64,000 nt of DNA, from contig CM119268.1 in the NCBI GenBank assembly GCA_051294375.1, positions 306,415 to 370,414 on the forward strand, given 5' to 3'. How positions within the stretch are numbered: position 1 is the first letter of the stretch; each line of letters opens with the position of its first letter. The notes under the pieces were generated by a model. The model saw nothing but the letters and a program-made list of their open reading frames with translations. It ran no database searches and was not told the origin of the DNA. This document shows positions 20,474-25,768 of this stretch, piece by piece. This DNA is from Paraspadella gotoi. Lineage: Eukaryota; Animalia; Chaetognatha. Made by a program: the position numbers and the translations under genes.

Positions 20474-23400
20474 TCAAACATATTCTTTTCTTGATTTTTC
20501 TATCAAACTTTTCATGCATGAAATCATAACTGTTGGATTCTCTTCTTTCATTATTTTTTCTTTCTCAACAAATCTTTTTATTTTTTCTCCTTTTATTTCA
20601 TTCATTTTCTTGGTTAAAACTTTTTTCTTTCTTTCATCCACAATAATTTTTCTTGTTTCTTCAAGATTCACTTCATTTTCTTTTATTTCCTCTTTAGTTT
20701 CTTCAATAAAAACTTTTAATATTTTTAGTTTAAACTCCAAAGCTTTTTCTTCATTCAAATCTGACGAAAATTGCCAAAAGCCGCAGTTCAATTCAGATTC
20801 CAACTGATTCAAGAGCTTACATTGGAGGTCCGCTTGTAAGGGCAGTTGCTTGCTTGTTGCCCTGTCATCGTCAACGGTCTGGATAGAGAGGTCTAGATTT
20901 CTCTCAAATTCTTTGACTTTAATCTCGAGCTTCAATTTTTCATTTTTTTTAAACAAGAAATAACCTTCTCTCAAAAATTGTATGTATTCCTCCAGCTCGT
21001 TTTGTCTTTGAAATTCCGACGACAGATTCTGAATTTTATCTTTCATTCTAAGAAAAACTCTTTTTTGGGATTGGCGTTTCTTCACTGGAGAAAGTTTATC
21101 TGAAATTTGTAAAGGGTAATCCTCTGTAGAAATATATTCTGATAAGCTGTTTGTATCACGGCTTGATGAAGTTTTCAGTGACTTATTTATTTCATAAAGA
21201 GCTGCGTTCATACTTTTAATAGTTTGCTGAAGTCCGGATGTAACTGATGCACTTAAGCTGCTCATTTTGGGCTCGAATCCATCCCAGCGTGGCGTTTCAA
21301 GCTCAACAATTTCTATGTTATATACTTTTTTTTTAAACCAGTAGTTATCGTGTTTGTACTTGTTTTCCAGAAATTCCAGCCGAAGATTTGTATGATGTTT
21401 GAGAAAGAATTTTAACAATGCTGAAAACAAATTTGGCATACGATTCAAACAATCTTTAAATGAGCAAAGTTTAAGAGATTGACTGTTGCGTATGAAACGC
21501 AAAGCATCCACTGTTGATTTAGTGTTAAATTCTTGAACTTTAGAATTCTCTTTAACTGTTTCCTCCCATTCTTTTCTGACACCCAAAAGATATTTGAAGT
21601 TGTTGCCCGTAACAATAGTCGAATATTTTTCCAAATCTGCTAATATGTGAGAATTAGAACTGCGTCCAAAACGGAGTTGAAGGGAGGAATTGATTGCTTC
21701 TACAAAAAATTTGTTAACTTCTTCAGAATTCCAAAAAAATGCGGATGAAAGAAATTGCTTTGCAGAAGGGAAGGGTAGATCATTATACCCGATGCCAAGT
21801 TTAATCACGTGTTTTAATAACGGATTTTTACTACATAAATTAAAATCTAATTCTTCTATTATTAATTTTTTTGTTTCTTCTGTTGTTGATGTTGAATTCC
21901 ATTTTTCATAATTTATTTTTAATAAATGTTCACGAATAATCTTGACTTTTTGATTCATACCTCGATCTACAATATACATCAAATACATCATAACAGAGAG
22001 ACACCATATGTCATATTTTTGCATATCCTCATGATAAATAGTTATGTCTTTAAATAATGGTCTCATTCTTATGGTTTTTTTAAATCCAGAAATTTGTGCA
22101 ATGTATTTTGACGATTTGCTATCTTTCGTTAGTACAATGCTTGAGGGATTGAGGTTCAAGTGAACAAACCCTTTTTCATGTAATTCCATTATAAAAATTA
22201 AAATTTGTTTGGATATTTCTTTCATATCAAGGGGAGTATTTTGGGCCAAACAAGTTTCCAGTGTAATCAAATTGTTACTGTTTATATCAGTTTGTAAAAT
22301 ATTGTTTTTGATGGAGGAAATTTCAAGGTTAGTAACAAAGTAAATTATGTTTTCAGGCTTATCTCCTTTTTTTACATTCTCATCAATTAAAGAGTCTCTT
22401 TCACAAAACTTTGAATTTTCTACAATGTTTTGAAGCAAATCAAAAAGATTAATCTCCAATTTCTGTATTCTGTCGTCATTACCAGGATTTTTTAAGAGTT
22501 TTAATGGAGTATTACCATCATCAGTCAAGAATAAAAGCAGATGGAGTCTTGTATAATCTTTTAGAGAGGCGATCGGTAAAGTTGCGATGTAAGAAAACAA
22601 TATGTCTAGAATATCTAATTCTTCTAAAGCCATCTTGAAAATATTTTTGTCTATAATTTCTTGAAGTTTGTCTTGAATTGTTATTTGTCCGTCTATGAAT
22701 TTATTTATTTTAAGGTAAGTAAACAATCGTATATCCTCTCTCTTTGTTATAGAAGATTTTAGTGCAGTTTCTAAAAGACCAGATGATTCGATGTTGAGTA
22801 ATTTTTCTCTGTCATTCTCGTTAAGAGCTTCAAGACAATTAATGACTATTACAGAGTTGAGAGTAATTTGTTTTTTAAGATAAGAAAACAAAGCCTCAAA
22901 ACAGTTTTCGCTCATAACAAAGCATTTCTTTTTTAAACCTTTAAAAATATTGTCTTCTGTTTCTTGAGAGTTCCTTGCCGCTTCAAACATCAACATGAAT
23001 AAAATGGAGAAAACAGATGAAAATGCTATGAACAAAACAACACTAATAGAGCCAATAGATTTTTCTCCATTCATGTGATACCAGGGCACCATGATAGTTA
23101 GATTAATAAATGTACTAAAAATGTGGTAGCAAAAAATATGTTTTAAATAGTTTGTAGTTGCTTTGTTAGTAGTGAGATCATTGGCATCTTTCCAAATTTT
23201 TTTGTCTGGGTCTCTATAAGTGGTTCTGTGCTCCAAGAATGTAAAAATAAAAATCCAGCCTCGATTAAAAAGGCGTAAGAAAATATGTTGAAATGTAAGT
23301 AAACGAATACATGAACATTTTTTTGTATCTTGAAACAATAATTTAGTGTCCATGTAATTAAACTCAACACCAGCACCAATTAATATCATTGTAGCAAATA

Positions 23401-25768
23401 ATATAAATCCTCCACTTGTAAAGTAGCTTAACAAAACAGCAAGGGATATACATTTTGCTGACACAATGGGAAGTTTCCAAAAAACAATTAATAAATAACC
23501 TAGTAATGTCGGGTCTTCTTTTAAAGGATGCATTTTTAATTTTGTATCAATGTAGTCACTAATAGCTAGTGCCAGCGTAACTAAAGAAGATCCAATTGTG
23601 AAGACTCGGTTGAAAGTCAACATATTTGAATCACAGCCAAGAAAAATATAAATTTGAAGTATTGCTTGAGGTGCTGATTCAAAAAATGCATCTTCAATGG
23701 ATTCTTCTGACAAAATGACTAAGTGTCTAAACAGCTTTGACATTTCTGTTTCCTCTCCCTTACCTTCTTTAAAGGCAGCTTTGAGTACCTCAATTAATGT
23801 TCCACTTTTGCTGTTAAAGTCAATAGTATCAATTTTATCTTGAAGTTTTAATTTATTTTGTTCTAAAACAGAATAATCCTCGGATTTCTGTTTTCTGTTT
23901 TTAGTTTTTGATTTGTTTTTTCTTTCTCTATGAACGCAGCAGAAGCAATACCCGTATGAGTTTTTATTTGGGGGAAAAATCCAATCTTCAATCTTTTTCC
24001 ACAATGATTCTTCATACTTTGTTGCATGAACCTTTAGACTCTCCACCTTTGGATAAGGCTCATAATCTTTAGTCTTTATAAGTCCCATCTTCATCTGCAA
24101 ATCAGTTATTCTACACCATATTCTAATTTTTCCAGTTTGTCGTAATATAACGAGTATAGGAAGAATGGAACACAGGATTATCTTAAAAATTGATATGAAG
24201 ATATAATACAAACAGAATAGTAGCCAGCAAAGCTTTCTACTCCTCTCCTTAATATTGATTATAAATTGAAAAAAGTTTTTGAGATTTGTTCCTTGGAGTT
24301 TTTCTGACCTAATTTCGACTCTTTGATAAATGTACAAATGGATTAACTTTTCCATGCTGGATCCCCAAACTTTTATGATTTGGGGAAGATAAATAAAAAG
24401 AAGTGTGAAGCCAAACCACCCCGGATGAGCTGGGCCTGTGAACAGTGTAAATAAAATATTTTAGGATATTGGTATAAATTCTAGAAATATTGTTAAACTT
24501 ATATTTACCATAAAAACTTTTCTTAGTAGATTCAATATCAGCCACATCCTCTTCTTCGCAAATTAATTTCTTCATGTAATAATCTGCACAAATTATGTAG
24601 TCAGAGCCAATGTCAGCGGCCAGGCCAAGGATTGAACCAACTTTAAGCGCAAATATAAAAAAGAATTTCAAATCTTGTCGACAAATATGATAAATCATTT
24701 TGATCCAGGCGATGGGGGTGGTGGCCAAGTCCAAGAATATGTTATGGATCATCAGGAGTAAAACCATGGGGAATGAGACTCGAGATGCTGGCGGTTGTAA
24801 AGTTGGTAGCTGAGAAGAGTCGAGTCGGGTAGGAGGGTTGATGGGTGAAGGAGTGATAGGTTCACTTAGCTCTATCGGTGATTCGGTTTCTGAAAAAAAA
24901 TAAGAGAAACAATGAGCAATCGACAGAAATATGGTAATGGTGATTAAAAAACCAGTTTTGCTTCAAAAATAAATAATAATATGATCATTGTTCATGATAT
25001 TTAATTGTATACTCTGCAATCTCTGGTACGTTTCATCTATAGTGACCCTATTTGTTGTTTCTTACCAAGTGTCTTTCTCCTTCCCATGGAATCAAACAGA
25101 CCCGTCAAGGAGAATCTAAAAGCTGTTGTGGAGGCTGATGATATTTCAGTTGACGTTGGAGATTCGATAGTTCCTAACTGGTTGCCAGACATGTTTAGGG
25201 ACAAGTTGGTGCCACGTCTACTAGCTAGCGTCTCTCGTGAGGCAGAAAGATCCTTGGAAAGGTAGGATATTTCATCATTTGGTCGCAGAAGAATTGGCGT
25301 GCGGGTGCACAAGAGTTTGTGCACATCATGTGAAGAATCTAGAGTTGTGTCTTCAACATTACTTGATGCAAAGTTCATGCAATTTATTTTCTGCTCATCC
25401 ATATTTTTACTGCTGCCAAAAAGATCCGAATAGTTGAGGTTAAAACTTGAAGGCGGCTGAAATCCTTCAGTGCAAGAAGCTTGGACGGGCGATTGGGCAA
25501 TGGATGGGGTGAGGAGAGGAGCGGATTCCACAGCTTTGTCAAAATAAAACTTAAGAGGCGTTGATGTCTTTGCTTGTTGAAATTTACTATGTCCCGAAAG
25601 TAAATTAGAGAGGTTATTGTTTTCACTAATGTTGTCATCATCTTCTTCCTCATCATGCAATGGATGGTCAGATGTAGAAGTTATCTTACCCCGAAAATCT
25701 TTGTCGTCATCATCGTCGTCGATAAACAAACATACTTCTTTATTGTCAAATGATTCACTAGTTGCCAT
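20474..25768 (-). CDS. XK-related (XKR/CED-8-like) membrane protein fused to an ankyrin-like segment, IRE1/RNase L-like pseudokinase, KEN-like RNase domain and coiled coil; ~1681 aa; exons 25768-25066, 24889-24509, 24435-20474
   Basis: Kozak-type GCCATGG start. Two phase-1 GT-AG introns join three ORF-track frames into one 5046-nt frame. XK motifs DIGSDYIICADYY, WFGFTLLFIYLP, EDAFFESAPQAILQIYI. Kinase-like LHEKGFVHLNLNPSSIVL, ISGF, DIWCLSVMMY, PSAKQFLSSAFFW. KEN-like FNTKSTVDALRFIRN...RMPNLF. Confidence 0.85.

Follow-up and report, generated by a model that had tools for sequence, protein, structure and literature searches.

The window analysed here, a 64,000-nucleotide (nt) stretch of DNA from the chaetognath Paraspadella gotoi (GenBank assembly GCA_051294375.1, contig CM119268.1, forward-strand positions 306,415 to 370,414; positions below count from its first letter), carries on its minus strand a gene that joins an XK-related membrane domain to remnants of an IRE1-type kinase and KEN domain. 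Its three exons add up to 5046 nt and encode a protein of 1681 amino acids (aa), hereafter the window protein, with a single stop (Table 1); this is the spliced frame that an earlier note, made from the letters of this DNA alone, had put forward, and the motifs quoted there all lie where it placed them. Exon 3 sits within an open frame of 1328 codons, the best of 200 shuffled sequences reaching 147 codons, and there are no N letters between positions 20000 and 26500. Exon 1 has no Pfam match, and neither a second XK copy nor a second kinase-KEN copy occurs in the window.

Table 1. Features of the XK-pseudokinase-KEN gene (positions within the window)
Feature	Position	Strand	Remarks
Exon 1 (aa 1-235)	25066..25768	-	Ser/Thr/Asp-rich low-complexity N-terminus; predicted disordered, cytosolic
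Intron 1, 176 nt, GT-AG	24890..25065	-	skipped by an X1 contig, short side 59 letters
Exon 2	24509..24889	-	first XK helix; D327 and D331 (Xkr8 D26, D30)
Intron 2, 73 nt, GT-AG	24436..24508	-	skipped by the same 1816-nt X1 contig
Exon 3, 3962 nt, one uninterrupted frame	20474..24435	-	XK remainder, helical linker, kinase and KEN remnants, tail, stop codon
XK-related membrane domain (aa about 305-850, across intron 2)	22970..24680	-	Pfam PF09815; XKR4 9boj
Helical linker (aa 851-1050)	22370..22969	-	a single degenerate ankyrin-like stretch, about 22525-22454
IRE1-type pseudokinase remnant (aa 1054-1263)	21731..22360	-	C-lobe kept; profile and alignment
KEN pseudo-RNase (aa 1264-1376)	21392..21730	-	retains R1344 and N1345; lacks the His base and the Tyr acid
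C-terminal Lys/Glu-rich tail (aa 1377-1681)	20477..21391	-	composition; possible coiled coil

The public run X1 contains 82% of the words that were sampled, and six of its contigs map to the gene at an identity of at least 99%. A 1816-nt contig skips both introns, with GT-AG borders on the coding strand, and extends to 23060, in agreement with both predicted junctions; the other contigs lie at 22661-23082, 21684-22624, 20830-21590, 20440-20599 and 25139-25762, exon 1 being covered at 25139-25762 and 25066-25124. X1 is one run from one study, possibly the source organism's own sample, and is not recorded as RNA; it is taken to hold transcripts because a contig skips the introns. Five contigs fall on exon 3, where they leave 36, 93 and 230 nt uncovered; the exon contains neither joints nor loose ends, and contig depth is comparable (5.2-9.3) over the XK, linker, kinase and KEN parts. 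The gene is not present in runs X2 and X3. We conclude that the XK-pseudokinase-pseudo-KEN fusion is a real, spliced gene. At position 22415, on the linker-kinase boundary, one X1 contig (depth 6.7) carries a single difference from the window, turning Asn1035 into Lys.

The XK domain, claimed by the earlier note, is clear and matches Pfam PF09815 with an E value of 1.2e-21 (77.5 bits against a curated cut-off of 24.8); its sole PDB match is XKR4 (9boj, E 0.0037). Mapping onto XKR8 through an amphioxus XKR6-like protein and a two-sequence profile places D327, D331 and E614 at Xkr8 D26, D30 and E141, an acidic triad that is thereby kept, and W368 at the gate residue W45. D610 corresponds to E137 (as Asp) and the equivalents of Q145 and D180 are retained, while R134 is replaced by Ser, R183 by Asp, R214 by Lys and D295 by Ile. 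Six charged residues are reported as required for Xkr8 scrambling (PMC8500837), and of these path residues (D26, D30, R134, E137, E141 and R183) four are kept by charge in the window protein. In Xkr4, the equivalents of D26, D30 and E141 build an acidic vestibule that thins the membrane (PMC12334663). Human XK, which lacks several of the Xkr8 path residues in the same alignment, is nevertheless needed for scrambling and works with VPS13A (PMC8851519), so that possession of all six marks Xkr8 and not the XK-related family. Since the window protein keeps the charge at four of these positions, and XK is needed for scrambling with several of the residues missing, the domain is likely to scramble phospholipids.

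As candidate caspase sites, the protein has a lone DxxD in its tail, at aa 969 and with Ile behind it, and an acidic stretch at aa 17-24. A long charged insertion lies between the two XK repeats (aa 460-600, about 24140-23720), with a Cys-rich patch right after a helix that could be a palmitoylation site; comparable Cys pairs are present in three of the relatives described below (P0001, P0003 and P0006).

Behind the membrane domain, the kinase piece gave Pkinase as its only Pfam match (E 0.0014, 18.5 bits) and the KEN piece gave Ribonuc_2-5A (E 0.001, 19.6 bits), both below the curated cut-offs of 31.7 and 23.3 bits; with the whole of exon 3 as the query, KEN appeared at E 0.23 and Pkinase was not among the matches. 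A search of 1.84 billion representative sequences returned 22 proteins, one of which, P0022, is an IRE1-like kinase-KEN fragment (E 8.6e-4, or 7e-13 in a pairwise comparison). These matches were obtained without a chosen template. An IRE1 profile, made from 118 of 120 IRE1-like proteins, scored 34.8 bits on the whole protein and 29.9 bits on the tail alone, where the best of 1000 shuffles reached 9.0, and did not report the reversed tail. The C-lobe joins the KEN segment through an FFW linker; KEN directly follows the kinase, and only these two parts of the module are present. The kinase C-lobe and KEN-like segment of the earlier note are both borne out by these matches, which support a physical fusion of the XK domain to an IRE1-family kinase-KEN remnant. 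P0022 itself comprises 292 aa with a C-lobe and a partial KEN, belongs to a 16-member cluster and shares 28-37% identity with named IRE1 proteins, and could represent a diverged kinase-KEN protein that stands alone.

In the ESM Atlas, kinase clusters matched with values of up to 0.91; two clusters that bear KEN, both of them leads only, stood at 0.88. In the one unbiased comparison, the PDB sequences matched at E up to 10 numbered 41 and included IRE1 at E 0.13 but no RNase L, a weak indication that the module is nearer IRE1 than RNase L; the KEN piece alone matched no PDB sequence at E up to 10. An AlphaFold model made with the IRE1 alignment reached mean predicted local distance difference test (pLDDT) values of 66-95 in 10-residue blocks over aa 1090-1369, and 39-58 over aa 1020-1089 (mostly below 50 over aa 1020-1085), with no N-lobe sheet; a single-sequence model of aa 854-1423 had a pLDDT of 34.8, the linker thus being modelled without confidence. 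Foldseek matched the former model to IRE1 at E 2.8e-8, and the VIA structure match ranked IRE1 (Z 21.0, root-mean-square deviation 5.3, 313 residues aligned) above RNase L (Z 16.1) and other kinases (Z 14.8). The ranking is partly circular for a model built on an IRE1 alignment, and these matches count as compatibility only. A two-copy complex prediction for aa 1083-1379 scored 0.00 with the alignment unused and is evidence neither way.

Both enzymatic functions look catalytically dead when the protein is compared with an alignment of 72 IRE1-like rows. The Gly-loop, the beta-3 lysine of VAIK and the APE motif have no counterpart, HRD has become HLN and DFG has become GFK, so that none of the five kinase motifs (GxGxxG, VAIK, HRD, DFG, APE) is present. 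Among the 120 IRE1-like proteins, HRD is found in 120, DFG in 106, APE in 112 and GxGxxG in 118, and none of these occurs in aa 851-1400 of the window protein; the kinase has no recognisable ATP-binding N-lobe. In the IRE1 RNase, H910 acts as the general base and Y892 as the general acid, while R905 and N906 hold the scissile phosphate (PMC9472280), and a His and an Arg are reported to be essential (PMC3710099). Two of these four residues are kept (R1344 and N1345, equivalent to R905 and N906), with H910 replaced by Leu1349 and Y892 by Phe1331. Neither the loss of this base and acid nor that of the N-lobe had been remarked on in the earlier note. The RNxxxH motif, present in 117 of the 120 IRE1-like proteins, is absent; no His lies 4-6 residues past R1344, and the lone Rx4-6H in aa 851-1400 begins at R1286, off the active-site helix. 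Compared with IRE1, the helix after the RNase motif is also short by about 10-15 residues. The window protein is identical at 29 of the 104 columns that 80% of the IRE1 rows conserve: at 4 of the 25 that lie up to aa 1090, at 17 of the 55 in the C-lobe and at 8 of the 24 in KEN.

The earlier note had further described an ankyrin-like element in the linker and a C-terminal coiled coil. Of the first, one degenerate stretch remains, aa 999-1022, which agrees with the ankyrin consensus at a Gly, at Thr-Pro-Leu, at a second Gly and at two hydrophobic positions farther on; the motif is loose, was chosen after viewing the sequence and occurs in 18 of 5000 shuffles. A repeat array is not borne out, the linker having no ankyrin match in Pfam, NCBIfam or PDB. 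By eye, some relatives without KEN carry similar-looking stretches after XK, at most a hint of an ankyrin array common to the XK subfamily; of the 21 pairs among the post-XK helical regions of seven subfamily members, 20 are not significantly alike (z up to 2.3), the exception being a close pair. The RNase L-like layout may thus have come about by coincidence, from a helical linker of the XK subfamily and a captured IRE1-type cassette. The coiled coil has behind it the Lys/Glu-rich composition of the tail and three weak heptad windows (aa 1425-1458, 1486-1515 and 1562-1591), and nothing further; no family was matched above its cut-off in this tail.

Besides P0022, the 22 database matches comprise 20 XK proteins or fragments (19 recognised by Pfam XK and P0017 by alignment) and P0015, a repeat protein from catfish whose match was dismissed as chance summed over its repeats. 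The best match is P0001, a 1341-aa protein from an ENA record whose XK domain aligns at 28% identity (E 4e-55) and which gives a second match over the kinase end and KEN (E 3e-5). This second match scores 79, a value attained by none of 2000 shuffles (best 68) and higher than the median of the 120 true IRE1-like proteins, 69; five other tails have no match of this kind. The kinase core of P0001 does not match that of the window protein (156 of 300 shuffles score as high), and the KEN segment therefore looks like the retained part. A profile of the two proteins together matched an IRE1-only profile with a probability of 87.8 over the KEN segment. The composition of the two differs strongly (GARP composition 0.217 versus 0.131), so P0001 is probably from another species, and since it carries XK with a matching KEN-like segment, the fusion is probably old and unlikely to be an assembly error. 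P0001 has a His (H999) at the H910 position, Gly at R905 and Arg at N906. These losses are complementary, the His being gone from the window protein and the Arg from P0001, which suggests an ancestral cassette with an intact RNase motif. The distance from XK to KEN is about 218 aa in P0001 and about 375 aa in the window protein. The tail of P0001 has no DxxD at the matching place.

Other long relatives bear different tails, SH3-like in P0002 (E 0.009), Kelch repeats in P0006 (E 4e-5), or helical. P0002, P0005, P0006, P0008 and P0010 form a divergent XK subfamily with long, varied C-terminal tails; in all of them the stretch separating the XK halves is extended and D180 is followed by a basic motif. 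In a tree built from 21 XK cores (omitting P0007, P0017 and P0020, which have no anchor motif), the subfamily stands apart from three XKR4/6-like rows; the window protein, on a long branch (0.84), and P0001 fall in an unresolved fork, which allows a single origin of the fusion. Further searches added no example: a word-based search with exon 3 residues 480-1060 gave none in 7985 candidates, and one with the subfamily alignment A3 recovered only its own member P0002 (1 of 7997); a metagenome scan reduced 358 pattern matches to 8 loci, all XK-only, with no match to the tail or P0022, though several are short or contain introns, which leaves room for the fusion there; none of 57 viral contigs matched; and the ESM Atlas gave no usable match for the P0001 tail.

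What goes beyond the domain anatomy is inference, namely scrambling, the cytosolic topology, capture of the cassette and a surface role for KEN. It is proposed that the window protein is an XK-family membrane protein, likely a phospholipid scramblase, whose tail, predicted to be cytosolic by analogy with XKR8 and XKR4, carries the dead IRE1-related C-lobe and KEN as a non-enzymatic scaffold regulating the membrane domain. A once-active cassette would have been captured by a divergent XK subfamily whose members differ in their tails. In XKR8 the C-terminal tail keeps the protein closed until it is cut or phosphorylated (PMC10938166); in place of that short inhibitory tail, the KEN helical bundle may offer a surface for protein binding or self-association. 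The whole tail, from the helical linker through the C-lobe and KEN to the charged extension, could hold XK shut, with binding of a partner or of a second copy acting on it; activation gated by oligomerisation, as the earlier note had it, would be conjecture. That the protein is a scramblase with a dead, IRE1-derived regulatory scaffold as its cytosolic tail has, in our view, about an even chance.

Several points weigh against this proposal. Two of the six path residues (R134 and R183) and the D295 salt-bridge acid are lost, although P0001 keeps R134 and the acid, and human XK too lacks several of these positions. Purified Xkr4 scrambles as a full-length monomer (PMC12334663), which implies that a tail is not required for activity in the family. 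P0001 alone matches no IRE1 profile, so that its identification as KEN is transitive, by way of the window protein, and the XK-KEN fusion has two examples only. No single RNA contig runs from XK to the kinase, a 36-nt hole lying at 22625-22660.

The same lost residues, the equivalents of R134, R183 and D295, could instead mean that the XK part is a non-scrambling membrane anchor or adaptor, with the IRE1-derived tail a slowly decaying remnant or a docking site unlinked to lipid exposure. The long branch in the XK tree, the small share of conserved IRE1 columns and the shorter distance from XK to KEN in P0001, which fits erosion of the kinase, point the same way, as does the partnership of XK with VPS13A (PMC8851519). 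Yet the acidic triad and the gate Trp are retained in both proteins; moreover, the 1328-codon frame is open, spliced transcripts are present, and the KEN segment is still alignable between proteins whose XK domains share about 30% identity. We regard this alternative as unlikely, though the best of those considered. Less probable still is that the dead KEN serves as a non-cutting sensor of RNA or nucleotides which opens the scramblase, so that a stress or infection signal would lead to phosphatidylserine exposure. R1344 and N1345 match the IRE1 residues holding the scissile phosphate, HEPN domains without the full motif have been proposed as RNA binders (PMC3710099), and KEN is the part common to P0001; but the Gly and Arg of P0001 at R905 and N906 mean that the putative binding residues are not common to both, the helix after the motif is shortened, and there is no known ligand.

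The earlier note had favoured an RNase L/IRE1-like sensor with ankyrin input and a working RNase as output, wired to the scramblase. RNase L itself contains a pseudokinase; the order of helical repeats, pseudokinase and KEN, the one ankyrin-like stretch and the His of P0001 at the H910 position would agree with such a sensor. With Leu1349 in place of the His base, Phe1331 in place of the Tyr acid and the kinase motifs lost, with no Rx4-6H His at the KEN site of a nuclease for which His and Arg are essential (PMC3710099), with no ankyrin family match and with a model devoid of an ATP-binding N-lobe, an RNA-decay sensor is not supported and seems highly improbable. Finally, that two adjacent genes or a mis-assembly were read as one frame, as the missing contig between XK and kinase and the confinement of the gene to one run of one study, maybe the source organism's sample, would permit, has a next to negligible chance against a stop-free exon without N letters, an even contig depth without joints or loose ends in exon 3, and the same domain order in the independently assembled P0001 of different composition.

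Two features lie near the gene. About 4 kb upstream of its start, with more sequence beyond, is a degenerate TTAGGG array of 5.3 kb (29596-34878, and also 28308-28385) with 866 copies and 71% matches, either an interstitial telomere-type repeat or a scaffolding join. On the other side, at 14771-18083 on the plus strand, lies a zinc alcohol dehydrogenase gene with many introns; one of its exons places it nearest to class III (E 1e-24). The X1 contigs diverge from this gene by about 6%, and those of the XK gene are nearly identical to the window, which suggests that the former represent a close paralogue or a divergent allele. Both features mark the DNA as eukaryotic, and the telomere-type repeat together with the sources of the relatives points to a marine invertebrate.

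The XK family exposes an "eat-me" lipid on dying cells, and the known XKR scramblases are switched by caspase cleavage, by phosphorylation or by a partner protein such as VPS13A. Here nature has fused the XK fold to a folded signalling module, which allows one to ask directly if gating in cis by a cytosolic domain is possible. The kinase-RNase looks doubly dead, and the differing losses suggest an originally active cassette whose KEN bundle was kept for a non-catalytic job; RNA decay being unlikely and the examples only two, the significance is smaller than the earlier note had held. A more far-reaching and doubtful picture would be a receptor-like scramblase evolved in an animal lineage, its XK domain gated by a captured IRE1 cassette that binds RNA or a stress partner without cutting. 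The XK subfamily would have expanded with several exchangeable cytosolic tails, among them pseudo-KEN, SH3 and Kelch, and would couple different internal signals directly to phosphatidylserine exposure, caspases playing no part. The note's view that the architecture is not known from characterised proteins agrees with our literature searches, which found no description of XK-related fusions to KEN, IRE1 or ankyrin (most subscription papers being outside their scope), and with the precomputed domains of the 120 IRE1-like proteins, none of which has XK. A HEPN survey, in the part considered, names kinase, ankyrin, CCCH, ubiquitin and BRCT domains as fusion partners of KEN, with expansions in Oikopleura and monocots, and does not mention XK (PMC3710099). 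The fusion is apparently undescribed, with one distant counterpart.

Among known systems, the window protein resembles XKR4, XKR8, XKR9 and CED-8 (PDB 9boj, 7dce/8xej, 7p14) in its XK fold and long disordered N-terminus; the equivalents of D26, D30, E141, Q145, D180 and W45 are kept and those of R134, R183 and D295 lost. It differs from them in an 830-aa C-terminal extension with folded domains, where theirs is short and caspase-cut, and from XKR4/6-like sequences in belonging to a separate divergent subfamily. With XK (XKR1), the partner of VPS13A, it shares the fold and the lack of several Xkr8 path residues, but XK has no kinase-KEN tail. With IRE1/ERN1 (PDB 6xdb, 6w3c, 2rio) it has in common the C-lobe-FFW-KEN order, R905/N906 and a predicted position on the cytosolic side of a membrane protein; a multipass XK domain, however, replaces the luminal sensor and single transmembrane helix, and the Gly-loop, VAIK, HRD, DFG, APE, H910 and Y892 are missing. 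RNase L (PDB 4oav, 7dsy) shows the same order of helical region, pseudokinase and KEN, with a fold match to the model at Z 15-16, below the Z of 18.5-21 for IRE1, on whose alignment the model was built; unlike RNase L, the window protein is membrane-anchored, has a broken RNase motif and has no detected ankyrin array. It is a variant of the XKR family and not a member of IRE1 or RNase L.

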